Below are positions 2,763 to 16,160 of a DNA stretch of 64,000 nt, in pieces. The notes beneath the pieces are model-generated. The model worked only from the letters and a program-made list of their open reading frames with translations. It was not told where the DNA came from and made no database searches. Made by a program: the position numbers and the translations under genes. The DNA is from an uncultured Verrucomicrobiae bacterium (lineage in GTDB: Bacteria > Verrucomicrobiota > Verrucomicrobiia > Chthoniobacterales > UBA10450): assembly GCA_963815455.1 (NCBI GenBank), contig CAWFGO010000001.1:480001-544000 (forward strand), written 5' to 3'. Positions within the stretch are counted from its first letter, which is position 1; each line of letters opens with the position of its first letter.

Positions 2763-4694
2763 TTAGACCTCTACGCGCGCGCCGAGTTCTACCACCCCGT
2801 TCGGTGGCAGGCAGAAGTATGATGTCGCGTCCCCGGCGTTTCGGGTCATCCAGGCAAACACCGAGCCGCGCCAGGAGGAGAGACCCAGTTTGCGGGTGGC
2901 AAGGATTGTTTCCCGTCCGATAAAGTAGGTTACTCGCATGGCATCGAATTGAAGACCGGTTTCCTTCACGCTCGCCAGCGCCGCCGGAACATCAGGTTTT
3001 TCCATAAACCCAAAATGAAGTTGTATCCGCCAGAATCCCCCATCCAATTTTTCAATGGCAACCCGATCTCGGGCATTTACCAGATAAGGAACCTCCGCCG
3101 TTTGCACTGTAAGTAACACGACTTGTTGGTGGAGCACTTTGTTGTGCTTAAGATTGTGGAGCAAGGCCAGAGGCGTTCCATTGCGATTGCCCGACATATA
3201 GACGGCGGTTCCCGGAACCCGGCGGATGCTCGTTTTTAGTTCGGGCAGAAAGTCCTCCAGGGGAATACAGATCTCGCTAAGCCGGCTCCGAAGAACGCGG
3301 CGCCCTTTTCGCCACGTCAGCATGAAGAACAGAATCACAGCAGAAACGAGCAAAGGGAACCAACCGCCATGAGCGATCTTCAGCATGTTCGCGCCGAAGA
3401 ATGCGAGGTCGATCGCAATAAAGAACACGGCGATTGCAAACGCTGCCGGCGCGGGCCAGTGCCAGCGATAACGAGCCACGACATAAAACAAAATCGTGGT
3501 AATCAACATCGTGGTCGTGATCGCCACGCCGTAGGCAGCGGCGAGATTGCTCGAAGTGCGAAAACCGAGCACCAGCGCGATGCAGGAAAGCATCAGGCCC
3601 CAGTTCACCACCGGCACGTAGATTTGTCCGATGATGCGCTCGGAGGTGTAATTGACTTTGAGCCGCGGGCTATAACCGAGCTGGATCGCCTGCATCGTTA
3701 AAGAAAAAGCGCCGCTGATAATCGCCTGCGACGCAATGACGGCCGCGGCTGTCGCGAGCACCACCATGGGATACAGTGCCCATGAAGGCGCCATCCGAAA
3801 AAAGGGATTTACCGCAGACTCCGGCTCAACCAGGAGAAGCGCGCCCTGCCCAAAGTAATTCAATGTCAACGCCGGGAGAACAACAGCGAACCAGGTCAAT
3901 CGAATGGGCGCAGTGCCAAAATGACCGATGTCGGCGTAGAGCGCTTCGCCACCAGTAACAACCAGGAAAACCGCGCCCAGCACGACAAAACCCCGTCCAC
4001 CATTGTTCACAAAAAATTCGAAGCCATGCAACGGATTCACTGCCGCCAGCACTTCCGGCGCACGAACAATTTGGTGAAGCCCGAGGAAACTGATCGTCAC
4101 AAACCATAACATCGTGACAGGTCCAAATACCGTGCCGACTCCCGTTGTTCCGCGCGATTGAAAGAAAAAAAGCGCAATCAAAATCGCAATCGCAATCGGC
4201 ACGACATATGGATCAAACAGCGGCGTAGCGATATGCAGTCCTTCGACAGCTCCCATCACTGAGATTGCCGGGGTGATCATCCCATCGGCGTACAGCAGTG
4301 CAGCTCCAAACAATCCGAGCGGGAAGAGGTATTTTCCTCGCCTGGCTACATCGCTTACCAGCGTCGCCAGGGCAAGGATACCGCCTTCGCCTCGATTATC
4401 CGCCCGAAGAATCAGGGTCAGATACTTGAGGGAAATGACCAGGAGAAGAGACCAAAGGATGAGTGATAACACACCAAGCACATTGGCGTGGGTCGGGGGA
4501 ACAGAGTGTTGCCCATAAAAGCATTCGCGCAGAGCGTACAGCGGGCTGGTCCCGATATCGCCATAGACGATCCCCAAGCTGGCAATGCATAAAAAGAGAA
4601 GCCGATTCCTGTGCTTCGCGGAACCAATAAAAGCAGGCGCGTGTCGGCCCGCGCCAGCGACGGGGGGAGCTAAGGTTGGAGGCCCGGAATTCAA
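2763..4694 (-). CDS. kup: KUP/HAK/KT potassium transporter
   Basis: GIVYGDIGTSPLYA, GEGG, TGGEALYAD.GHF, GQIYVP signature motifs. Confidence 0.97.
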   Translation of the reverse strand: MNSGPPTLAPPVAGAGRHAPAFIGSAKHRNRLLFLCIASLGIVYGDIGTSPLYALRECFYGQHSVPPTHANVLGVLSLILWSLLLVISLKYLTLILRADNRGEGGILALATLVSDVARRGKYLFPLGLFGAALLYADGMITPAISVMGAVEGLHIATPLFDPYVVPIAIAILIALFFFQSRGTTGVGTVFGPVTMLWFVTISFLGLHQIVRAPEVLAAVNPLHGFEFFVNNGGRGFVVLGAVFLVVTGGEALYADIGHFGTAPIRLTWFAVVLPALTLNYFGQGALLLVEPESAVNPFFRMAPSWALYPMVVLATAAAVIASQAIISGAFSLTMQAIQLGYSPRLKVNYTSERIIGQIYVPVVNWGLMLSCIALVLGFRTSSNLAAAYGVAITTTMLITTILFYVVARYRWHWPAPAAFAIAVFFIAIDLAFFGANMLKIAHGGWFPLLVSAVILFFMLTWRKGRRVLRSRLSEICIPLEDFLPELKTSIRRVPGTAVYMSGNRNGTPLALLHNLKHNKVLHQQVVLLTVQTAEVPYLVNARDRVAIEKLDGGFWRIQLHFGFMEKPDVPAALASVKETGLQFDAMRVTYFIGRETILATRKLGLSSWRGSVFAWMTRNAGDATSYFCLPPNGVVELGARVEV

Positions 4695-4733
4695 CGTTGT
4701 TGAGGAGCTTAGACTTGGCGGAAATCCAGAGTA

Positions 4734-4750
4734 GTTGAAATGGTATTAAA
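4734..4750 (-). promoter_or_regulatory. Putative KdpE-type box upstream of kup
   Basis: Minus strand TTTAAT-ACCAT-TTCAAC, hexamers spaced 11 bp. Confidence 0.45.
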
Positions 4751-4781
4751 ATTCAAAGGCATCATTTCCCGTGAGAGTTGA

Positions 4782-5933
4782 ATGGGCTACTGTGCTCCCG
4801 TGCTGGAAACATCCAGTTCGCGCCGCATCGAGCGATTATCCCCTGGGGGGTTGTCCGGCCAAACGACCTTCGCTCCACTGAAAGAGTACGCCATTGCGGT
4901 CGCCGGCGTGGCTGCGCTCACCATCGCTTGTTGGCTGTTAACACCGCTAATCGGTTACGGGGCCATTTCTCTGATCTTTCTCCTGGGCGTCCTGCTTGCA
5001 GGAATGATTCTTAATCGAGGGCCGGTCCTGCTGATTGCAGCACTCAGTGCCCTCTCATGGAATTTCCTGTTCATTCCGCCGCTGTTTACCCTGCACATCG
5101 CGAAATTTGAGGATGCGTTGACCTTTGCGACCTACTTCATTGTCGCGATCGCTGTGGGAAGTTTGACTTCTCAACTGAAGGCGAGGGAGCATCTGGCAGC
5201 TCAGGTCCAGCTGGCCCAGGAATCCGAGCGGCTTCGCAAGACCTTGCTCGATTGCGTTTCACATGAACTGAAAACTCCCCTTGCCGCCATTGCCGCGGCC
5301 AGTCAGGAACTGGTCCGGCTCGCGCCAACGACCCACGACAAGGCGCCGGTCGAACAGCTGGCCCGCGAAATCCGCGACGCCTCCCGCAGGCTCAATCGCG
5401 TCGTCAACAATCTCCTCGATATGAATCGACTCGAGAGCGGAGTGATCCGGCCAGAACAAGAATGGTGCGAAGTCCATGAATTATTGCAATCGGCAGTGGA
5501 AATCGAGCGCGAATCAGTCAATGGCCGCGACGTTCGAGTCGATGTCGCGGAAAACACTCCGCTGGCCCTGGTCGATCACGCCTTGATTGAACAGGCTGTC
5601 GCGAAACTCATAGCCAATGCGGCGAGTCATGCCCCGGCCCGGGCGCCGATCGAGATCGATGCCGAGTATAGCGGAGAAGAGTTGCTCATCTCGGTCAGCG
5701 ATCGCGGGCCGGGACTTCCACCAGGCTCGTCTGACCGATTGTTCGAGAAATTCTACCGCGGCGACAACCGCAAAACCGGTGGCCTCGGGCTGGGATTATC
5801 GATCGCTCGAGGATTCGTCGAGGCGCATGGCGGCACACTGGTGGCTGAGAACCGGGATGGCGGCGGGGCGCGATTCACCATCCGTTTGCCGGTACGGATA
5901 ACAGATGCAGACGCATTGGAGTCTTCATCATGA
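4782..5933 (+). CDS. Short KdpD-like sensor kinase (DUF4118 4-TM + HisKA + HATPase; no KdpD/Usp/GAF domains)
   Basis: WNFLFIPP.FT TM motif, VSHELKTPL H-box, DRGPG and GLGLGLSI boxes. Confidence 0.9.
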   Translation: MGYCAPVLETSSSRRIERLSPGGLSGQTTFAPLKEYAIAVAGVAALTIACWLLTPLIGYGAISLIFLLGVLLAGMILNRGPVLLIAALSALSWNFLFIPPLFTLHIAKFEDALTFATYFIVAIAVGSLTSQLKAREHLAAQVQLAQESERLRKTLLDCVSHELKTPLAAIAAASQELVRLAPTTHDKAPVEQLAREIRDASRRLNRVVNNLLDMNRLESGVIRPEQEWCEVHELLQSAVEIERESVNGRDVRVDVAENTPLALVDHALIEQAVAKLIANAASHAPARAPIEIDAEYSGEELLISVSDRGPGLPPGSSDRLFEKFYRGDNRKTGGLGLGLSIARGFVEAHGGTLVAENRDGGGARFTIRLPVRITDADALESSS

Positions 5934-6613
5934 AAGCCGCTCATATTGCTCTAATCATTGATGACGAAAAACAAATCCGCCGGCTTCTTCGCGTCGCCCT
6001 GGAAGGAGCGGGTCATCAAGTCTACGAAGCGGAAACAGGAGAATCCGGTCTGACCGAAATAGTGCAGCGCCAACCGGACGTGGTTCTTCTCGACCTCGGT
6101 TTGCCCGACATGGAAGGTGTCAAAGTCCTGCAGCGTTTGCGCGAATGGTCGGATGTGCCGGTGCTGATTCTTTCAGTTCGGGACGACGCCGATGAAAAAG
6201 TCGCGGCGCTCGATGCCGGGGCGGATGATTACGTAACCAAGCCGTTCGACACGGCCGAGCTGCTGGCCCGCATTCGCGCGACTCAACGGCGATCCTTAAC
6301 AGAAACGGGCGACCCGGTCTTCAACTGCGCCGGACTCTCCGTCGATTTCTCGGCACGTCGGGTAACGCTCGATGGGGTTGAAGTTAAGCTTACCCCCACC
6401 GAGTACCCATTGCTCCGGGTGCTCGTTCAGAACGCCGGAAAAGTCGTAACCCACCGGCAGTTGCTTCGAAGCGTCTGGGGAGAGAAGGCCGAAACCCAGG
6501 CGCAATATCTGCGGGTTTACATCACCCATCTGCGAAGAAAACTCGAAACCAATCCGAACACGGCCAGGCTGATCAAAACGGAAGTCGGCATCGGCTATCG
6601 GCTTTCGCAGTAG
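5930..6613 (+). CDS. kdpE: KdpE-like OmpR-family response regulator (copy 2)
   Basis: LLDLGLPD, GADDYVTKPF, YLRVYITHLR, GIGYR; ATGA overlap with the kinase. Confidence 0.88.
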   Translation: MKAAHIALIIDDEKQIRRLLRVALEGAGHQVYEAETGESGLTEIVQRQPDVVLLDLGLPDMEGVKVLQRLREWSDVPVLILSVRDDADEKVAALDAGADDYVTKPFDTAELLARIRATQRRSLTETGDPVFNCAGLSVDFSARRVTLDGVEVKLTPTEYPLLRVLVQNAGKVVTHRQLLRSVWGEKAETQAQYLRVYITHLRRKLETNPNTARLIKTEVGIGYRLSQ

Positions 6614-6631: not shown

Positions 6632-6648
6632 ATTAACACTCTTTTAGC
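6632..6648 (+). promoter_or_regulatory. Putative KdpE-type box upstream of small ORF 6705
   Basis: ATTAAC-ACTCT-TTTAGC, followed about 15 bp later by TTTAATT as in the kdpF upstream region. Confidence 0.4.
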
Positions 6649-6704
6649 ACCGCAGAGGCAGATTTTAATTAGCTGCTCCGCACCCGGCGGGACCACGGTT
6701 AGGT

Positions 6705-6920
6705 ATGAAAGCAATCGTGGTTGTATTCGCCCCCGAGCCTGACATCAGACCGTCAGGAGTGCAGGTCGAGCCCAGGCTGGAGATCGACGGCGCAGATTGG
6801 CACAGCGATCTGGATCAGAGCAAGGGCGACTCCCAACCCAAGCCGATGATGGGCAGAGAATCTGTAATTCCATTCTGGACCTGGTTCATTGAAAATCCAC
6901 GCCCAACGAGCTGTCATTAA
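6705..6920 (+). CDS. Small hypothetical protein, FWTxFIENPRP family (copy 1)
   Basis: 71 aa; N- and C-terminal motifs shared with 11235..11471, with mostly synonymous codon differences. Confidence 0.7.
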   Translation: MKAIVVVFAPEPDIRPSGVQVEPRLEIDGADWHSDLDQSKGDSQPKPMMGRESVIPFWTWFIENPRPTSCH

Positions 6921-7015
6921 ATTCACCCTTCGGGCAAGGATGGGAAAGGACTTTACACGGTCCCTGCCGTCGGAGACTCCATTGGCCCGCCGATGGCACG
7001 TCGATGGCACGTCGA

Positions 7016-7690
7016 TCATCCGAAACGATAACCGATTCCGGATTCGGTCTTGATCAGAGTTGACCTGGCCGGATCCGGTTCAATTTTCTGCCGCAGATGC
7101 GTGACGTAAACGCGCAAATATTGTCGATGCTCCTCGGATTTTGGGCCCCAAATCTCGCGTAGAATATAGCGGTGAGTGAGGATGCGGCCGGCATGCCGCA
7201 CAAATAGGCGAAGAAGTGCGTATTCGGTAGCGGTCAGCTTCACCTCCTTTCCAGCGCGGGTTACAACCCGCGTGGTCAGATCCACAACCAGGTCGCCGCG
7301 CTTAAACACGGAGGTTTCTTCTTCGGGTCGCGCCTTGCGTTGCGCGGCCCGAAGACGCGCCAGCAGTTCCGATGTGCCGAAGGGTTTGGTCACGTAATCG
7401 TCCGCGCCGGCATCGAGCGCAGCCACTTTGCCCGCTTCATCATCGCGCACCGAAAGAACAAGGACCGGCGCCTCGCTCCACTCGCGCAGCCGTTTCAAAA
7501 CTCCCAGCCCATCGATATCCGGCAGCCCAAGATCAAGCAGAATAACCGCCGGTTTGGAATTGGCGATCTCAACTAATCCGAGCTGCCCGGTCTCCGCTTC
7601 GCGGACCTGATAATTCTCCGCTTCCAGCGCGACGCGCAGGAGCCTGCGAATCTGGACCTCGTCATCGATGATCAGCGCGATCGGCTTCAT
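7016..7690 (-). CDS. kdpE: Response regulator KdpE
   Basis: Receiver plus OmpR wHTH; coupled to kdpD. Confidence 0.93.
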   Translation of the reverse strand: MKPIALIIDDEVQIRRLLRVALEAENYQVREAETGQLGLVEIANSKPAVILLDLGLPDIDGLGVLKRLREWSEAPVLVLSVRDDEAGKVAALDAGADDYVTKPFGTSELLARLRAAQRKARPEEETSVFKRGDLVVDLTTRVVTRAGKEVKLTATEYALLRLFVRHAGRILTHRYILREIWGPKSEEHRQYLRVYVTHLRQKIEPDPARSTLIKTESGIGYRFG

Positions 7691-10314
7691 GCGGTCGCCG
7701 CTTCAGTCGGCAATCGCATCGCCTCGCCGATCGGCAAGCAAATCGAGAAACGGGCGCCACCGCCATCGCGATTTTGCGCGACGATCTGACCGCCGTGCGC
7801 TTCCACCAACTGGCGTGCGATCCAAAGTCCGAGGCCAAGGCCACCGGGCGCAGTGCCTGGACGGCGATAAAATTTTTCAAAAACCCTGTTCTCCTCGCCC
7901 GCCACGAGGCCAGGACCTCGATCGGCGACGGAAAAGACCATTATGGAGTTGTCACGCGCGACCCTGATCTCGATCGGCTCTTTGCTTGCTCCATGCAACG
8001 AAGCGTTAGCCAGTACGCAGATCAGTGCTTGTTCGATTAGGCGTGCGTCGACCGAGATCGCCGGCAAATCTGGAGCGATATTCACTGTGAATGCTTTTTC
8101 TTTCAGTCGCGCTCGTGCGATGGCATCACGCAACAATTCGCCCGGATCGCACCATTCGCGAACCGGTTGCAACAAACCCGACTCCAGCCGCGTTGCATCG
8201 AGCAAATGATCGACGGTGCGAGTGAGGCGTCCGACAGCTTGTTTCAATTCGGCCCGGTCCGGCTGCGGTTGTTGCAAGGCAGCGGAAATCGCCGCCAGCG
8301 GAGTCTTTAATTCGTGGGAAACGGAATCAAAAAGCGCGCGCTGCAATTTCTCCGATTGGCGGGCGAGCTGCGCGGCCCGGCGCTCTTCGAGGGCGCGCTC
8401 CTTGTAAACGAAAAGGGCAAGTTGCGCCGCAAAAGCGTCCATCAGTTCGCGCTGTTCGATCGTAGGCGTGCTGGTCAATCGCAGACTGAGCACGCCTTCG
8501 GAGCGATCGCCGGTAACGAGCGGAACATGGAGCGATTCGGCATCGGGCAATGTGTCGGTCGATCTTCCCGCGGCTTGTTTTTTCTGAAACGCCCACATCG
8601 CCACGCTCTCGTCTTTGGTCGAGCAGCGATACATGCTGGCCGGATGTTGCGACAGTCCGCCTTCGTCCCGTAACCAGATCCCAGGATCGGCTTGAAAAGA
8701 GTTTTTAATGAGCGCCAGAACTTTCGGCAGCGCTTCATCGAGATCGCGGCTGGCGGCAAGATCGCGCGTGAATCGATAGAGCGCAGTCGCCCGTTCTTCC
8801 CGGCGTCGCTCGGCTTGCTCGCGTTCGCGCAATTGAGTAGCGAGCTGGCCAATCACGATCGCGATTACGAAATACGCGCCGAACATCACGAAGTCCTGAA
8901 AGAGGCTGATGTAAAAAGTGAATCGCGGCGGAATGAACAAAAAATTCCAGAGCAATGCGCTCAGCGTCGCCAGAAACAATGTCGGCCACCGGCTCAAGCG
9001 CATTCCGGCAAGCACGACCGCGAGCAGATAAAACAGAGCAACCGCCCAGTAACCGGTGTAATCGAAAATCGCCAGCGATACGCCGGTCACTGCTCCGGCG
9101 ACGGCCAGCGCGACCACAAACTCGCGCCACGCTGTGCGCGCCAGACGCTCTTCCAATCGTTCCCGCCGGGGTCGCGCCCCTTCTTCGGCGGGGATCATAT
9201 GGATGTCGATGTTGCCGCTATTGCGCATGAGCCACCGAACCAGATCGCGCTTCCAAAAAGCCCAGGAAGGTCCGAGCGATTTGCCGACTACGATCTGCGT
9301 GACGTTATTCTCGCGAGCCAGGCGTAGCAGCGTTTCACTCACGTCGCGACCCGGCGTCGAGATGACCTCGGCGCCGAGTTGTCGCGCGAGCGCGAGATAG
9401 CGGGTTAGCCGCGCCTGTTCCTCTTTTGAAAGCGAGCGTGGCCCTTCGATGTTGGCGACGATCCACGATGCCTCCATCGACGATGCGAGTCGCCGGGTAT
9501 AACGAATCAATCTTTCCGAATACGGACTGGCGCTCACAGCCACGAGCAGCCGATCCGCCGTCTTCCACGGCCCGGCGATTTTTTGCTCCGACATAATGTC
9601 GCGCAAATCGCGATCGACATGTTCGGCCACGATCCGCAACGCCATCTCGCGCAAAGCTGTGAGATTGCTTTCCCGGAAAAAGTTTTCCGCAGCCGTAGCA
9701 GCGCGTTCGCCCATGTAAACTTTTCCTTCGGCCAAACGGGCCCGGAGTTGCTCCGGCGTAAGATCGACAAGCACGATTTCATTCGCCAGATCGAGAACCG
9801 AATCGGGCACGGTTTCGGTGACCGCAACTCCGCTGATTTGCCTAACCACATCACTGCGGCTGCCGACGTGCTGAACATTCAACGTCGTGTAAACGTCGAT
9901 GCCAGCATCGAGCAGCTCCAGCACATCTTGATACCGTTTCGGATGACGCGATGCCGGCGCGTTGGTGTGCGCGAGCTCATCGACAATCGCGAGCCCCGGA
10001 TGCCAGGTCAGGATGGCATCGAGGTCCATCTCCGTGAGCTTGGTGCCGCGATATTCGATCAGCGCGCGCGGGACGATCGGCATCCCTTCCGTCAACGCTT
10101 CGGTTTCTTTACGACCGTGCGTCTCAACAATTCCAACAACAACTTCGCACCCTTCCGCCTGTTTCTCTCGCGCGGCCAGTAACATGGCGTAGGTCTTGCC
10201 CACCCCCGGCGACATTCCGAAAAAAATATTGAGCTTCCCGCGCGTGGATTCCGCTTCTTCGCGCTTCAGTTGCGCGAGAAGGGCATCGGGATCAGGCCGT
10301 TCCGGCTCGGTCAT
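7687..10314 (-). CDS. kdpD: Sensor histidine kinase KdpD (full length)
   Basis: RPDPD, GMSPGVGKTYAML, VDELAHTN, KRYQDV, Usp domain, 4 TM, SHELKTPL. Confidence 0.97.
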   Translation of the reverse strand: MTEPERPDPDALLAQLKREEAESTRGKLNIFFGMSPGVGKTYAMLLAAREKQAEGCEVVVGIVETHGRKETEALTEGMPIVPRALIEYRGTKLTEMDLDAILTWHPGLAIVDELAHTNAPASRHPKRYQDVLELLDAGIDVYTTLNVQHVGSRSDVVRQISGVAVTETVPDSVLDLANEIVLVDLTPEQLRARLAEGKVYMGERAATAAENFFRESNLTALREMALRIVAEHVDRDLRDIMSEQKIAGPWKTADRLLVAVSASPYSERLIRYTRRLASSMEASWIVANIEGPRSLSKEEQARLTRYLALARQLGAEVISTPGRDVSETLLRLARENNVTQIVVGKSLGPSWAFWKRDLVRWLMRNSGNIDIHMIPAEEGARPRRERLEERLARTAWREFVVALAVAGAVTGVSLAIFDYTGYWAVALFYLLAVVLAGMRLSRWPTLFLATLSALLWNFLFIPPRFTFYISLFQDFVMFGAYFVIAIVIGQLATQLREREQAERRREERATALYRFTRDLAASRDLDEALPKVLALIKNSFQADPGIWLRDEGGLSQHPASMYRCSTKDESVAMWAFQKKQAAGRSTDTLPDAESLHVPLVTGDRSEGVLSLRLTSTPTIEQRELMDAFAAQLALFVYKERALEERRAAQLARQSEKLQRALFDSVSHELKTPLAAISAALQQPQPDRAELKQAVGRLTRTVDHLLDATRLESGLLQPVREWCDPGELLRDAIARARLKEKAFTVNIAPDLPAISVDARLIEQALICVLANASLHGASKEPIEIRVARDNSIMVFSVADRGPGLVAGEENRVFEKFYRRPGTAPGGLGLGLWIARQLVEAHGGQIVAQNRDGGGARFSICLPIGEAMRLPTEAATA

Positions 10315-10350
10315 CCGCCAATTCTACGCCGTTGCCACGTTGCCTGCATC

Positions 10351-11235
10351 TCAGAAGCGATGAGCGAACCCGACGAAGACGTTAACATCATCGGCGCTGC
10401 GCGTGAGCCCAATGTAGGAGTTGATGTCGATCGATGAATTAGGAGTGAGTTGATAGGTCAAACCGAAGTCGGCGGTCCCGATCCAAGGGTGATCGTGGCC
10501 GGAGCTGACTGCGTTGAAGAACTCGGCATAGCCGCTCAAGTTTCCGACGATCGTGCGCGACACACCCACAGGGTTGCTCCATTGCACGCGCATGTTGCTG
10601 CTCTGCGGTTCGTCGAGGATGTCGATCCTTGTTTGGCCAAACAAGGTAAAACCAGCCGGCAGCGAGTAGTTAACTGGCAGGCCAAAACCCGGTTCCCAAA
10701 CATGATTGCCAAGGTGATTCGTGTTTGTCGGAATTTTGAGCGAGGAGACGAGGCCAATCACGAGGTTGCCGCCGTCATTGCCGAGGAAGTTGATCTTTAG
10801 CCGGACCGTTGTGTCTCCAAAGCCATCTTGCTCCAGTGGTTTTCCAAAGTCCTTTCCGCTCGTGCGCCGGTTGACATAAAAATTTGGAATAACCTGAAAA
10901 TCCATCCAGTTCGTCAGGCCGAGTTTGAAATTTGTTTGCCCGATTACCCAGGTGCGAACGCGAATGTCGAGATGTTCGGGATTGCGATGATCGTAGATCC
11001 AATCGGCCGCCGTGGATTCAATTTGGAAAGCGCCAGCATCAATCGTGTAAGGGCTATCGGTGTTGCTGGAGCGATCCGTATTGTAAGGCCGGCGCAGGTT
11101 AATCGGGGTCGGATTGAAAATTGTGTATCGCGACTTGTCCGGCGGAGGCGTGCTGGCGGGCGCTGACGATTCTCCGTCGGCGAAGGCCGCGTGTGCGCAA
11201 ATGGTAATTGCCAGCGCAATAAGAGTCCGTTTCAT
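10351..11235 (-). CDS. Putative outer-membrane beta-barrel 'transporter' (MetA-pathway/CoxB-like)
   Basis: Signal peptide MKRTLIALAITICAHAAFA from ATG 11235, TDR..T.SPYTID.G.FQIE, GFGD...RLK, C-terminal Phe (GFAHRF). Confidence 0.75.
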   Translation of the reverse strand: MKRTLIALAITICAHAAFADGESSAPASTPPPDKSRYTIFNPTPINLRRPYNTDRSSNTDSPYTIDAGAFQIESTAADWIYDHRNPEHLDIRVRTWVIGQTNFKLGLTNWMDFQVIPNFYVNRRTSGKDFGKPLEQDGFGDTTVRLKINFLGNDGGNLVIGLVSSLKIPTNTNHLGNHVWEPGFGLPVNYSLPAGFTLFGQTRIDILDEPQSSNMRVQWSNPVGVSRTIVGNLSGYAEFFNAVSSGHDHPWIGTADFGLTYQLTPNSSIDINSYIGLTRSADDVNVFVGFAHRF

Positions 11236-11471
11236 TAATGTTTCATTGGTGGCCGCGGGTTCTCGATGAACTGGGTCCAGAACGACAAATGCTGGGGAGC
11301 GCAGGCTGCTAGCCTGCTGTGCTCGGCAGCTTGCCGAGCACTCTTTTTCGATCCTTGAACGGCTGGAGCAATTTCGGAATGCGAAGAGCAAGCTGCTCTT
11401 CGCTGCAGGCTGGCAGCCTGCGCTCCCCAATCCGGCGAAACCGGAACGAAGATGGAGACGCACGTTTTCAT
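11235..11471 (-). CDS. Small hypothetical protein, FWTxFIENPRP family (copy 2), with in-frame REP-like insert
   Basis: Starts 11 bp after the kdpC stop; TAATG overlap with the next gene; paralogous ends with 6705..6920. Confidence 0.65.
   Translation of the reverse strand: MKTCVSIFVPVSPDWGAQAASLQRRAACSSHSEIAPAVQGSKKSARQAAEHSRLAACAPQHLSFWTQFIENPRPPMKH
11293..11429. repeat. REPIN-like element (GGGAGCGCAGGCTGC.AGCCTGC family)
   Basis: Long terminal inverted repeat with internal hairpins; second copy at 62142..62283. Confidence 0.85.
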
Positions 11472-11482
11472 TGTTAAACCGA

Positions 11483-12047
11483 TCAGCGAAGCGAATCGAG
11501 CGCGAGATTCAGCTCCAAAACGTTGACCAACCGATCGGGAGAGAGCGGGCCGCCGGGCGCAAAAGCGTGTTGCCTAACGAGTCCGTCGACTTGCGACTGC
11601 GGAACTCCGCGCGCGATTGCCACGCGCGCTGCCTGATACAAGGCTGCGTGCTCGGTGATGTGCGGATCGAGTCCGCCACCGGAGGTTGCGGCGAGTTCTG
11701 CCGGCAACGGTTTGTCAGCAGTCGCGCCATATTGTGCGATTATCGTTTTTGCGCGGTCGGTCAGATCGCTGCTGGTGGGAGATTTGTTGCTGCCGCTCGC
11801 GCTCGACGCGTCATAGCCGTCTTTCCCCGCTGCTGAGGGTCGCGGCCAGAAGTAACGCGGCTGGCTGAACTTCTGCGCAATTAAATGGCTGCCGATGATT
11901 TTTCCATCGGCGCTCTTGATCAAGGACCCATCGGCGGTGTCGGGGCTGAAAATCCTGGCGACCCCGAAAATCAGTGCGGCGTAGCCCGCCACACAGACAA
12001 CGCATGGTGACGATAACGAGGCGAATGCTGGCAATAAGTGATTTCAT
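11483..12047 (-). CDS. kdpC: K+-transporting ATPase subunit C (apparent frameshift near 12000)
   Basis: MKSLIASIRL start joined to A.GSLI, YFWPRPSA, SGGGLDPHI, VNVLELNLALD. Confidence 0.93.
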
Positions 12048-12051
12048 ATAT

Positions 12052-13736
12052 CTACCTCATGAATTGCAGATGCTCGGCGATCGGGCCGAGCGCCGCGGCC
12101 GGGAAAAATGTGAGCGCGCCGACAAAAAGAATGGTCCCGAATAACATCACGCCGAAGGTGCCGTCTTCGACGCCGAGGGTTCCGGCCGATTGGCGACGTC
12201 CGCCGTTTCGCGGCGAGCGAGCCGGAGATGGCCAGCGGCAGAATAATGGGAATGAACCGCGCCAGCATCATCACAACGCCGGTGCCAACATTCCACGGAA
12301 TCGTGTTATCCCCGAGTCCTTCAAAACCGGAGCCGTTGTTCGCGTTTGCTGAGCTGTACTCGTAAAGCATTTCACTGAAGCCGTGCGGGCCGGTGTTATT
12401 CAACGTCTTGGCGCCCCAATCGGGGATGGCGGCAAAAAGCGCGGTGGGCGCAAGAACAAAGAGCGCATGCGCAAAGAGCGCGATGACAGCGAGCTTGACC
12501 TCGCGCGCCTCGATTCGTCTCCCGAGAAATTCCGGTGTCCGTCCCACCATCATTCCAGCCACGAAAACGGCGAGAACGATATAGAGAAACATGTTGATCA
12601 TGCCGACACCGACGCCGCCGAAAGTCGTATTCAACCACATGCCGATCATCGGCATCAGGCCGGTCATGGGGTTCAGACTGTCATGCATCGCGTTGACCGA
12701 GCCGTTGCTCGTGCATGTTGTGAGCACGGCCCACAATGGTCCGGCCGTCGTCCCGAAGCGCAGTTCTTTGCCTTCAAGGTTGCCGACAGTTTGTTCGATC
12801 GGCAATCGATCAAAGGCCTGGGTTGGCGCTTGTTCAAACCAGACCGCGCCGCTGATTTTCCCGACCAGGAATACGAACATCACGGCGAAGATCACTGCTG
12901 CATGGCGCATGCGCCCGACAATGCGACCAAACATCCAGACGCACGCCATCGGAATCAGGATGATCGACACGGATGCGAGGATGTTGGTCCAGAAGGTTGG
13001 GTTCTCGAACGGATGCGTACAGTTAGGCCCGAAGAATCCGCCGCCGTTGGTCCCGAGTTGTTTAATCGTCAGGAAGGCAGCCACCGGGCCGCGCGCGATG
13101 GTTTGTTGGATACCCTCCAGGGTGCTGGCATGGGCTGCGCCGAGAAATGTCATCGGCATGCCACCGAAAACCATCAGTGACGCCACGATGATCGCGATCG
13201 GCAGCAGCACCAGAAACGTCGCGCGCTGAAGATCGCAAAAGAAATTGCCCATCTCTTTGCGACCGGCGAGGCCGCGCGCCATCGCGGCAAGCGCGGCGAT
13301 GCCAGTTGCGGCGGAAACGAATTGCAGCCACATCAGGGCGCAAAGTTGCGAGAGATAACTCATCGACACCTCACCCGAATAGTGTTGGAGATTGGTATTC
13401 GTCATGAACGACGCCGCGGTGTTGAAGATGCAATCGATGTTGATCGCTCCTTTGCCGTCGGGGTTGAGCGGCAGGTGCTGTTGAAATGCCATCAACCCGA
13501 AGCTGACGGAAAACATAAGGACATTGAAAACGAGCATCGAAACCACGTATTGCTTCCAATTCTGCTGCTGCGGCGCTGAACTGCCCGCCAAAGAATTGAA
13601 ACAGCCGGTCGAGCTTTCTCGCGCTTGAGCTGCGAGATAGATCCGGGTCCATGGCCCATTTCATGTAACGGCCGAGCGGCCAGGAAAGGATGGCGGTGCC
13701 GCCGACGATGAGTGCGATGAAAAGAATTGCGTTCAT
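12052..13736 (-). CDS. kdpA: K+-transporting ATPase subunit A (apparent frameshifts near 13585 and 12195)
   Basis: [52 protein letters not shown]-terminus [12 protein letters not shown] in a shifted frame. Confidence 0.95.
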
Positions 13737-13741
13737 AAAGT

Positions 13742-13822
13742 TCAGTCCTCCCAACGCGCGATCGCTTCAGTCAACGCGAACAGGAGCGCGAAAATGATGA
13801 GACCGAGAATGAAGTAGATCAT
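13742..13822 (-). CDS. 26-aa single-TM peptide between kdpB and kdpA
   Basis: Manual translation MIYFILGLIIFALLFALTEAIARWED; fills the gap and contains the GGAGG RBS of kdpA. Confidence 0.7.
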   Translation of the reverse strand: MIYFILGLIIFALLFALTEAIARWED

Positions 13823-13834
13823 AGAATCGTTAGG

Positions 13835-15899
13835 TTAAATGAGGTGCAAAGCAGGCAGAAGCATGTCGATCAACTTGATGCCGATGAACGGCGCGATGAC
13901 TCCGCCAAGACCGTAGATCAGCAGGTTGCGGCGAAGGATCGCGGCCGCGCCAATCGGTCGATAGGCGATGCCGCGCAACGCGAGCGGAATAAGCGCGATA
14001 ATGATGAGCGCGTTGAAAATAACGGCGCTAAGAATGGCCGATTGCGGCGAATGCAGCCGCATGATGTCGAGCGCGGCGAGTGGACCTCTCTGTCCCGGTG
14101 TTGCCACATAAGTCGCGGCAAACATGGCCGGCAAAATCGCAAAATATTTCGCGACATCATTGGCAAGACTGAAAGTGGTCAGCGCACCGCGCGTCATGAT
14201 CAGTTGCTTCCCGATCTCGACGATGTCGATCAACTTGGTCGGGTTGCTGTCGAGATCGACCATGTTACCCGCTTCGCGGGCGGCTTGCGTGCCGGTGTTC
14301 ATGGCAACGCCAACGTCGGCTTGCGCGAGTGCCGGTGCGTCATTTGTTCCGTCGCCGGTCATGGCGACCAGCCGGCCTTGCGCTTGTTCCTCGCGAATCC
14401 GCTTCAGTTTGTCTTCCGGCGTGGCTTGCGCCATGAAATCGTCCACGCCCGCTTCGGCTGCAATCGAGCCTGCCGTCAGCGGATTGTCGCCGGTTACCAT
14501 TACTGTGCGAATGCCCATTTTGCGCAGATGGGCGAAGCGCTCTTTGATTCCACCTTTGACCACGTCTTTCAATTCCACGACGCCGAGGATCATCATTTCC
14601 GAAGCGACCACCAGTGGGGTTCCGCCGCGATGTGAAATCTCATCGACAGTTTTCGTTACCGACTGTGGAAAAACGCCACCAGCTGATTCAACAAACGTCC
14701 GGACGGCCTCGGCGGCGCCCTTGCGCACCCGCATGGTCGGCTGCGTGTTGCTGGCGTGCAGATCGATACCGCTCATGCGCGTTTGGGCCGTGAACGGAAT
14801 GAACGTGGCGTGGAGCTCGTGCATTTCCCGCCCGCGCAGTCCGAATTTTTCCTTTGCCAATACGACGATCGAACGGCCTTCCGGCGTTTCATCGGCGAGC
14901 GAGCTGAGCTGCGCAGAAGCGGCCAGGTCGTTAGGCGCAATTCCTGGCGCGGGATGAAACGCCACCGCCATGCGGTTGCCAAGCGTGATCGTGCCTGTCT
15001 TGTCGAGAAGGAGAACGTCAATGTCACCCGAGGCTTCGACCGCGCGTCCGCTCATCGCCAGGACATTGCGTTGGAGGACGCGGTCCATTCCGGCGATACC
15101 GATCGCGCTGAGCAGTCCGCCGATCGTTGTTGGAATCAAACAGACGAGCAGCGCGACGAGCACCGGCACGGAAAAAACGGCCGACGCGTAGACACCGAAC
15201 GGTTTCAACGTTACGCAAACCAGCAGAAAAATCAGTGTCAGTGCGGCGAGCAAAATCGTCAGCGCAATCTCGTTAGGCGTTTTTTGCCGTCGTGCTCCTT
15301 CGACAAGCGCGATCATGCGATCGAGAAAACCCTGGCCTTTTTCCATCGTCACGCGAATGACGATGCGATCGCTCAAGCACACGCGTGCCGCCGGTCACGG
15401 CGCTGCGGTCACCGCCACTTTCCCGAATAACCGGCGCAGATTCGCCGGTGATCGCGGCTTCATCGACGCTCGCGATTCCTTCGATCACATCGCCATCGGC
15501 CGGAATGATGTCGCCCGTTTCGCAAACAACGATGTCGCCCTTCTGCAAGATCGGCGCTGGGAACGTTTTCTTCACTGCCATTACGCAACCGGCGCGCCAT
15601 CGTTTCCGTGCGCGATCTGGCGCAATGCCGCGGCCTGCGCTTTGCCGCGTCCTTCCGCAACGGCTTCGGCGAAATTGGCAAACAAGACCGTAAACCAAAG
15701 CCAGATCGACAGGTGCGCAACAAATCCGCGCTCGCCGGTTGACGTGAAAATGCCGACCGTCGTCAAAATCGCGCCAACCATCGTGACAAACATGACTGGG
15801 TTCTTGATCATCAGCCGCGGGTTCAAGCTTTTTGAAAGCGTCGCCGATCGCGGGGCCGACGATGCTCCAATCAAATAAAGAACGAGGTTTCTGACTCAT
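13835..15899 (-). CDS. kdpB: K+-transporting P-type ATPase subunit B (three apparent frameshifts near 15825, 15612, 15385)
   Basis: [41 protein letters not shown] spread over consecutive frames. Confidence 0.95.
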
Positions 15900-15909
15900 A
15901 CGCGAGTCG

Positions 15910-15993
15910 TCAAAACTTTTCCGGACGAATCACGGCCACGAACAGGTAGATAAAGAGCAACAGCGCGATGATGCCGACGATGATTGTTTCCAT
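15910..15993 (-). CDS. kdpF: KdpF peptide
   Basis: Manual translation [27 protein letters not shown] with GGAGG RBS; YL...RPEKF signature. Confidence 0.93.
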
Positions 15994-16003
15994 GGCGATC
16001 CTC

Positions 16004-16085
16004 CTAAAGCTGGTCGCAAAAGCCACATAAAGAGCGCTGACGATGAAGAATCACGAGACGATCCCAGCAAAATTAAGTCGCTCAT
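16004..16085 (-). CDS. Small hydrophobic peptide upstream of kdpF (indel-disrupted)
   Basis: MSDLILLG...FFIVSALYVAF(C)DQL, readable only across two frameshifts. Confidence 0.4.
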
Positions 16086-16143
16086 AACCGATCCACAATA
16101 AGCGAACTTCCGGGCGTGCGATAATTAAACGATGCGCCAAACC

Positions 16144-16160
16144 GTTAAAAATTCGTTAAA
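16144..16160 (-). promoter_or_regulatory. KdpE binding site upstream of the kdp operon
   Basis: Minus strand TTTAAC-GAATT-TTTAAC, same 11-bp spacing as the E. coli TTTATA-N5-TTTACA site. Confidence 0.65.

Follow-up and report, generated by a model that had tools for sequence, protein, structure and literature searches.

What do two small open reading frames (ORFs) with the same C-terminal motif (FWTxFIENPRP) encode, and why does each lie among genes for potassium (K+) uptake in an uncultured Verrucomicrobiae bacterium (Chthoniobacterales, family UBA10450)? Both occur in a window of 64,000 nucleotides (nt), i.e. the whole stretch analysed (positions 480,001 to 544,000 of contig CAWFGO010000001.1, assembly GCA_963815455.1), where copy 1 follows a second kdpE gene and copy 2 lies inside the kdp operon (Table 1). 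Comparison with relatives confirmed that both ORFs are real and are paralogues in one unannotated microprotein family, a previously undescribed, order-restricted component of the K+ regulon. We give a probability of about 0.45 to the reading that the family is induced by KdpE and, as a soluble protein with two motifs, modulates the KdpD kinase core or the KdpD-KdpE step by feedback.

Two copies of one microprotein

Copy 1 translates as MKAIVVVFAPEPD...PFWTWFIENPRPTSCH and copy 2 as MKTCVSIFVPVSPD...SFWTQFIENPRPPMKH, each followed by a stop codon. The initial annotation had drawn attention to codon differences beneath the shared residues, and these were verified in the DNA (ATT GAA AAT CCA CGC in copy 1, ATC GAG AAC CCG CGG in copy 2), as were the common ending CAT TAA, the 11-bp gap between the kdpC stop and copy 2, and the TAATG overlap of copy 2 with a gene for a 294-amino-acid (aa) beta-barrel. 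When all six frames of the 3.6-Mb genome were searched, FW..FIEN and IENPRP were found at two sites only, namely copies 1 and 2; the chance expectation for the 10 residues common to both is ∼1e-9 per window, for a motif chosen post hoc. Neither copy matched any Pfam or NCBIfam profile, including KdpF (PF09604). The equal distance from motif to stop is seen in both copies but is coincidental, as the tail after the final R varies from 1 to 39 aa among 269 family members (median 7, with a single outlier of 209 aa). Copy 2 is alone among these members in having Q for the second W of the motif.

Anatomy and selection of the family

Relatives were sought with a back-translated motif pattern, which matched 35 of 151 genomes of the bacterial family, compared with none for the reversed control, and which located 46 loci among GTDB species genomes. 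A profile built from 57 sequences then recovered 707 clusters when matches were grouped at 90% identity (E<=1) and 222 representatives when they were grouped at 50% (E<=0.001), and no Pfam domain or informative name was present among the matches listed for either search. Members are ∼70 residues long. A hydrophobic strand (MKAIVVVF) at the N-terminus is joined by a free linker to the motif PFWTWFIENPR, past which the tail is variable. Within the motif, W, F, N and P are invariant in all 269 members, T is kept in 266, the second W in 268, R in 255 and the preceding P in 249. The N-terminus follows the form M-K-A/T-I-V-V-V-F, which in some operon copies is internal and reads TYVFVFVP; the distance from start to motif is 16–72 aa (median 54; 262 members with a short N-terminus).

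That the motif is conserved at the level of protein is evident from 62 non-redundant loci, where its third codon positions are free to vary and nucleotide conservation ends at the R codon. The preceding P and the second W, neither of which was fixed by the search patterns, were kept at 60 and 61 of the 62 loci, respectively. An N-terminal regular expression matched at all but 19 of these loci, and in 42 of the 43 matches the N-terminal motif was in frame with the C-terminal one at spacings of 87–201 nt. The dN/dS comparison suggested in the initial annotation was made on seven close pairs: the motif showed 13 synonymous changes at 44 sites (pS 0.30, the same as in the linker) and no non-synonymous changes at 187 sites (pN 0, a value that is partly circular because the loci were found via the motif), and dN/dS for the linker and N-terminus was ∼0.6. 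A few copies are broken, by a stop in the linker (L004), a frameshift (L046) or a stop in the motif (L080). The possibility that an RNA structure or DNA element had been mistaken for a coding sequence was rejected, since codon periodicity is kept, third positions are free and no Rfam match was obtained. Tests of frame, codon usage and linkage thus agree with the earlier proposal of a real K+-regulon microprotein that carries two short conserved motifs on a free linker, with in-frame conservation and codon periodicity found across the 62 loci.

No transmembrane (TM) helix or signal peptide was predicted; the median of the best 19-residue hydropathy was 0.72, and 5 of 372 sequences reached 1.6. 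Two profiles had no match among PDB sequences at E<=10, no Pfam family was consistent across 67 members, and the ESM Atlas gave a best match of 0.76 or none. The family appears largely unstructured in AlphaFold2 (AF2) models: the peptide alone was predicted without a fold (pLDDT 65), and members of the kdpB-kdpC type with one helix (residues 16–25; pLDDT 66), a low-confidence model for which Foldseek found no fold match in PDB. Three long matches among 8000 scored candidates look like extended gene calls or chimeras, which is weak evidence that fused forms are absent. By eye, the motif looked similar to a KdpD loop (WNFLFIPP) and to FENP of KdpA; for KdpD the likeness was unsupported in profile comparison (probabilities of 0.3 and 0.5).

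Taxonomic range and gene contexts

The family was found in Chthoniobacterales but not in the other Verrucomicrobiota orders sampled. Titles naming Chthoniobacterales, Verrucomicrobiota or Ca. Udaeobacter were attached to 44 of the 46 GTDB loci. The other two (L037 and L046) lie on contigs titled Limnocylindria and Nitrospirota, and their KdpB, KdpD, KdpE2 or mini-KdpD matches are 73–84% identical to those of the window; they probably reflect mis-binning or transfer. In a set of 301 order genomes, a motif-only profile detected members in 19 of the 48 that belong to the UBA10450 family, along with six weaker matches in other families that are true members adjoining kdpC. Five of these divergent members lie between kdpB and kdpC and one between kdpC and kdpD, with motif variants such as FWTYFIENP and FWTWFLPNP; other weak matches of this profile were noise or were set aside. 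In other orders, no member was present beside kdpC (29 loci) or around kdpD (20 loci). A first search of the phylum (301 genomes) returned the source genome and one weak match with stops, a weak blank given that the profile misses divergent members. The Verrucomicrobiota-wide search envisaged in the initial annotation therefore yielded many relatives linked to kdp or kup, but none outside Chthoniobacterales in the sampled orders. Viral contigs gave no match and plasmids chance matches only; a single metagenome scan gave one locus with a stop in the motif, and is uninformative as to range since the pattern excluded the usual Trp codon.

Three gene contexts were recognised, in which the peptide gene follows a kup / mini-KdpD / kdpE2 cassette (context A), follows kdpC (context B) or lies between kdpB and kdpC (context C); its place in operons shifts between first, middle and late. 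A kdp, kup or kdpE gene was present in the fetched flank at 59 of the 62 loci, two more have the cassette within 3.5 kb, and the remaining one is at a contig end. In context A, the gene downstream encodes a BBP2 porin, a KimA-like permease, KdpA or a four-helix-bundle protein, or is a convergent gene (ddl, trmA, kdpD/E, TPR or ferritin-like).

Several features of these neighbourhoods are recorded for their own sake. An AA_permease_2 gene, probably KimA-like, lies directly 3' of the peptide gene under the same KdpE-type box at L005, L008, L018 and L058. A stand-alone 4HB_MCP_1 protein with a lipoprotein-like start is encoded behind a KdpE-type box (L081:11191-12303, L083:11754-12842, L053, L073 and L082), and in two genomes a decayed peptide reads through into the four-helix-bundle protein. 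Loci L096-L100 hold a second type of kdp operon, with an N-terminal-only KdpD, a different kinase and regulator upstream, and no peptide.

KdpE-type box and action in trans

The KdpE-like box that had been noted before copy 1 is conserved in relatives and shared with the kdp operon. Across 52 aligned context A loci the upstream consensus is TTAAC-N4-TTTTAGC-N14-TTTTAATTA, ∼33 nt 5' of the ATG, and a hexamer of the form xAxxxT ends 6 nt before the ATG, for which reason the transcript of copy 1 is likely leaderless. The three-site box occurs exactly twice in the genome, once ahead of copy 1 and once at the head of the kdp operon. It occurs once in each of the 16 scanned cassette genomes without KdpA (G026 has an extra stray match with two mismatches) and, in every case in which coordinates were compared, lies 5' of the peptide gene; scattered single matches to the reversed box turned up in 6 of 42 genomes. 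A two-site box before kup is conserved across 24 sequences. According to the available text of PMC3264566, the E. coli KdpE site is TTTATA-N5-TTTACA, and the box has the same 6-5-6 geometry with TT first. Taken together, these sequence features make KdpE control of the peptide gene likely, and kup itself is likely a KdpE-induced importer in the 16 of 77 genomes of the bacterial family that have the cassette and no KdpA match. A scan for sigma-70 consensus sequences found no promoter, as expected for one that depends on an activator.

Context A also bears on whether the peptide serves the gene next to it. The next gene could be classified at 38 of 54 loci, and was convergent at 18 and co-directional at 20. 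The box, which was not among the peptide search criteria, was kept at all 18 convergent loci, and motif mismatches amounted to 6 of 198 residues there vs 2 of 220 at the co-directional loci. Retention of the box where no co-directional gene follows argues that the peptide itself is the selected product and that it acts in trans.

Co-occurrence and the candidate target

Co-occurrence was assessed in 77 genomes of the bacterial family that were at least 93% complete, of 150 drawn. An intact peptide was present in 30 of these (28 by hidden Markov model, two by reading the loci), and in all 20 genomes with a strong match to mini-KdpD, a shortened sensor kinase. It was absent from all 27 genomes without the DUF4118 core, from all four with Kup only and from all five read operons with N-terminal-only KdpD, with the proviso that the peptide profile can miss divergent copies. 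Neither KdpA nor Kup is the common target, as 16 genomes without a KdpA match and seven without a Kup match still carry an intact peptide; the suggestion in the initial annotation that it might modulate Kup or KdpFABC is contradicted for either as sole target. Of the earlier proposals, modulation of KdpD/KdpE is the best that remains, although going from co-occurrence to binding, and assigning a direction to the effect, takes inference.

Nine of 14 read operons with full KdpD carry the peptide, two (G056 and G011) do not, and three belong to genus g4. These three g4 genomes have lost mini-KdpD and retain kdpE2, kup, kdpABC and a divergent KdpD, and their peptides are all damaged: G038 has lost NP and the stop, G073 is further decayed, and in G087 a box-like promoter persists although the peptide that followed it has been deleted. 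Another g4 genome, G003, retains both mini-KdpD and peptide. In phylogeny, mini-KdpD forms a clade (100/100) apart from the peptide-linked full KdpDs, and the same motif accompanies both.

The mechanism we favour would run as follows. At low K+, KdpE~P would bind the three-site box and so turn on the peptide gene together with kup and the kdp operon; the hydrophobic strand and the W/F-rich motif would then tether the peptide to the kinase and damp its output. By analogy, the modulator would probably act as a brake, which would matter most for mini-KdpD, a kinase that has lost its GAF and Usp domains, to which sensing of intracellular K+ and control are ascribed in E. coli KdpD. In E. coli, K+ binding at the TM and GAF domains of KdpD is described as leading to phosphatase activity in the available text of PMC11018627, and an inducible brake would be useful because mini-KdpD lacks GAF. 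Caulobacter KdpD is reportedly also without GAF, according to a partly available preprint (10.1101/2023.07.05.547876). A stronger version of this idea is unlikely: the peptide would serve KdpD as an off-switch subunit, detachable and inducible, a soluble two-motif clamp that replaces the lost GAF/Usp domains of mini-KdpD and may itself respond to cytoplasmic K+. If this held, potassium sensing would have its first small-protein regulator under KdpE induction, and kinase modulators a new, soluble architecture built on short motifs.

A number of observations weigh against KdpD/KdpE as the target. A gene driven by KdpE will co-occur with KdpD/KdpE whatever its target, so that co-occurrence is mostly not target-specific. 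One motif accompanies two kinase clades whose transmitters are only ∼49% identical, which suits a housekeeping target equally well or better. In G745 the mini-KdpD was deleted recently (a remnant still shows 85% identity, with a frameshifted full KdpD close by) and the peptide is intact. Decay in g4 was probably a single event, in genomes that retain a divergent full KdpD, and the peptide is missing from G056 and G011 in spite of their full KdpD. Four weaker DUF4118 frames (∼390–410 aa) fall outside the mini-KdpD count, and one such genome, G062, has no peptide match. Kinase residues specific to peptide-bearing lineages proved to be mainly lineage or generic kinase residues, and the sign of the effect is pure analogy. 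Co-folding of a mini-KdpD dimer (residues 28–375) with two peptides (score 0.00) spoke neither for nor against binding.

Alternative explanations

Less likely than a kinase modulator, yet plausible, is a trans-acting K+-starvation effector directed at a conserved housekeeping target, e.g. as a protease adaptor or anti-adaptor (FtsH, Lon or Clp), or at the ribosome or a K+ efflux channel; of its two motifs, one would contact the target and the second a protease or the membrane. Two short motifs on a free linker are adaptor-like, the motif is near-invariant across three contexts and two distant kinase clades, and persistence of the peptide in G745 after deletion of mini-KdpD also fits. There is precedent in the Mg2+ regulon, where MgtR and MgtS steer degradation by FtsH (available text of PMC12648545). 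However, peptide decay with a retained promoter in g4 would be unexpected for a universal target, and the peptide is strict with mini-KdpD yet dispensable with full KdpD. An accessory of the regulon's K+ transporter or outer-membrane barrel, comparable to KdpF or MgtS, is distinctly unlikely. The peptide does sit inside kdp operons by kdpB/kdpC, and the gene after it often encodes a beta-barrel, a KimA-like protein or KdpA, but 16 genomes keep it intact in the absence of KdpA and seven in the absence of Kup, transporters of unrelated folds, and it has no signal peptide, TM helix or Pfam match, KdpF included.

Slightly less credible again is a nascent-chain arrest or leader peptide that would sense K+ during translation and gate the downstream gene in cis. 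Its appeal lies in the invariant motif, rich in W and F and closing with N-P-R(-P) shortly before the C-terminus, after which comes a variable tail, and in the hydrophobic N-terminal patch about one tunnel length upstream, an arrangement that resembles SecM and TnaC; the gene, moreover, comes first in its transcript at 20 loci or more and, in operons, is coupled to the one that follows. Against this stand the box and near-intact motif at 18 loci where the next gene is convergent and of several kinds, the end of nucleotide conservation at the R codon, the lack of an Rfam match and the shifting operon position. A ribosomally synthesised and post-translationally modified peptide (RiPP) or other processed precursor, as the initial annotation had also considered, is very improbable: a short conserved core with a variable leader-like region would suit it, but no modifying enzyme, peptidase or exporter stands consistently beside the gene, leaving the proposal unsupported, and the tail past the core varies from 1 to 39 aa.

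Relation to known small regulators

Few bacterial signalling systems have been studied as thoroughly as KdpD/KdpE. For the Mg2+ sensor PhoQ, several small-protein modulators are known. Negative feedback on PhoQ by MgrB is described in the available text of 10.1101/438515 and PMC12648545. Like MgrB (47 aa, PhoQ/PhoP), the new family is a small protein in the probable regulon of its own cation two-component system, and a Trp is key for the binding of MgrB (10.1101/438515, in the part available). Unlike the family, with its two short motifs, disordered linker and lack of TM helix, MgrB has a TM helix and periplasmic cysteines; there is no sequence match, and kinase binding by the new family is a prediction. 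Soluble modulators of the kinase transmitter offer a second parallel. In the available text of PMC8534201, Sda binds the DHp domain of KinB and PtsN that of KdpD, and Sda/KipI (KinA, KinB) and PtsN (E. coli KdpD) are all of this kind; they are folded, in contrast to the new family, which is predicted to be largely unstructured, is encoded with kdp/kup and is likely KdpE-induced.

KdpF (PF09604) is likewise a small protein of kdp operons, but it is a single TM helix of the pump, whereas the new family persists without KdpA. MgtR and MgtS share membership of a cation-starvation regulon (PMC12648545, in part), but are membrane peptides that act on transporter degradation and show no similarity to the family, for which a single transporter target is excluded. 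Ribosome arrest peptides (SecM, TnaC and PepNL) resemble it in having a short invariant motif near the C-terminus and in regulating a downstream gene (available text of PMC11890864); the new family differs in being kept with its promoter where there is no downstream gene, and in having no conserved RNA structure. In the literature outside most subscription journals, to the extent that its text was available, neither the microprotein family nor any small regulator of KdpD induced by KdpE was found.

The family is thus a concrete candidate for a KdpD/KdpE modulator, with a near-invariant 11-residue motif and a stripped-down kinase of 383 aa that it always accompanies, and it occurs in Chthoniobacterales including soil bacteria of the Ca. 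Udaeobacter type. Should the target prove to be a housekeeping protein instead, the peptide would still be a new K+ starvation effector.

Genomic setting of the two copies

Neighbouring genes were called with Pfam and NCBIfam profiles (Table 1). The mini-KdpD lacks the KdpD N-terminal, Usp and GAF domains, and the divergent kup / mini-KdpD / kdpE2 cassette spans 2763-6613. On the minus strand the order is kdpF-kdpB-kdpA-kdpC-copy 2-barrel-kdpD-kdpE1.

Table 1. Coordinates of the microprotein copies, their motifs, associated boxes and neighbouring genes within the window.
Feature	Position	Strand	Remarks
Microprotein copy 1	6705..6920	+	71 aa; stand-alone, 3' of kdpE2, convergent with kdpE1 (next gene)
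N-terminal hydrophobic strand motif of copy 1 (MKAIVVVFAP)	6705..6734	+	
C-terminal motif of copy 1 (PFWTWFIENPR)	6870..6902	+	
Microprotein copy 2	11235..11471	-	78 aa; in kdp operon, between kdpC and barrel gene
Motif variant of copy 2 (SFWTQFIENPR)	11253-11285	-	
Three-site KdpE-type box	6633..6671	+	TTAAC-N-TTTAGC ... TTTTAATTA; 33 nt before copy 1 ATG
Weak -10-like xAxxxT	6694-6699	+	upstream of copy 1
Three-site box heading kdp operon	16122..16159	-	sole other copy in genome
Two-site (6-5-6) KdpE-type box before kup	4732..4751	-	shorter; conserved in relatives
kup K+ importer	2763..4694	-	divergent from mini-KdpD
mini-KdpD	4782..5933	+	383 aa; DUF4118 TM + HisKA + HATPase_c
kdpE2 response regulator	5930..6613	+	64% identity to kdpE1
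kdpE1	7016..7690	-	
Full-length kdpD	7687..10314	-	KdpD-N, Usp, DUF4118, GAF, HisKA, HATPase_c
PF13557 outer-membrane beta-barrel gene	10351..11235	-	start overlaps copy 2 stop (TAATG)
kdpF-kdpB-(small ORF)-kdpA-kdpC	11483..15993	-	kdpB, kdpA frameshifted in assembly
kdpF	15910-15993	-	gene separate from copy 2

The order kdpF-kdpB-small ORF-kdpA-kdpC is unusual, and the same order is found in G745. The small ORF between kdpB and kdpA (13742-13822, minus strand) encodes a hydrophobic protein of 26 aa with no Pfam match; a second small hydrophobic ORF, frameshifted, lies upstream of kdpF at ∼16000-16085 on the same strand. About six single-base frameshifts were seen by eye in kdpG-like, kdpB and kdpA sequences (window positions 11483-16100), and elsewhere in the genome a frame change was detected in 4 of 39 loci, which is an undercount. 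The frameshifts in the kdp operon could represent either assembly error or decay, and copy 2 likewise has its rare W-to-Q change. Lastly, these K+ regulons regularly include outer-membrane barrels (PF13557 or BBP2 PF07642), as at 10351-11235 in the window and at L009, L011, L035, L036, L045, L049, L051, L063, L076 and L092; the barrels may be K+-starvation porins.

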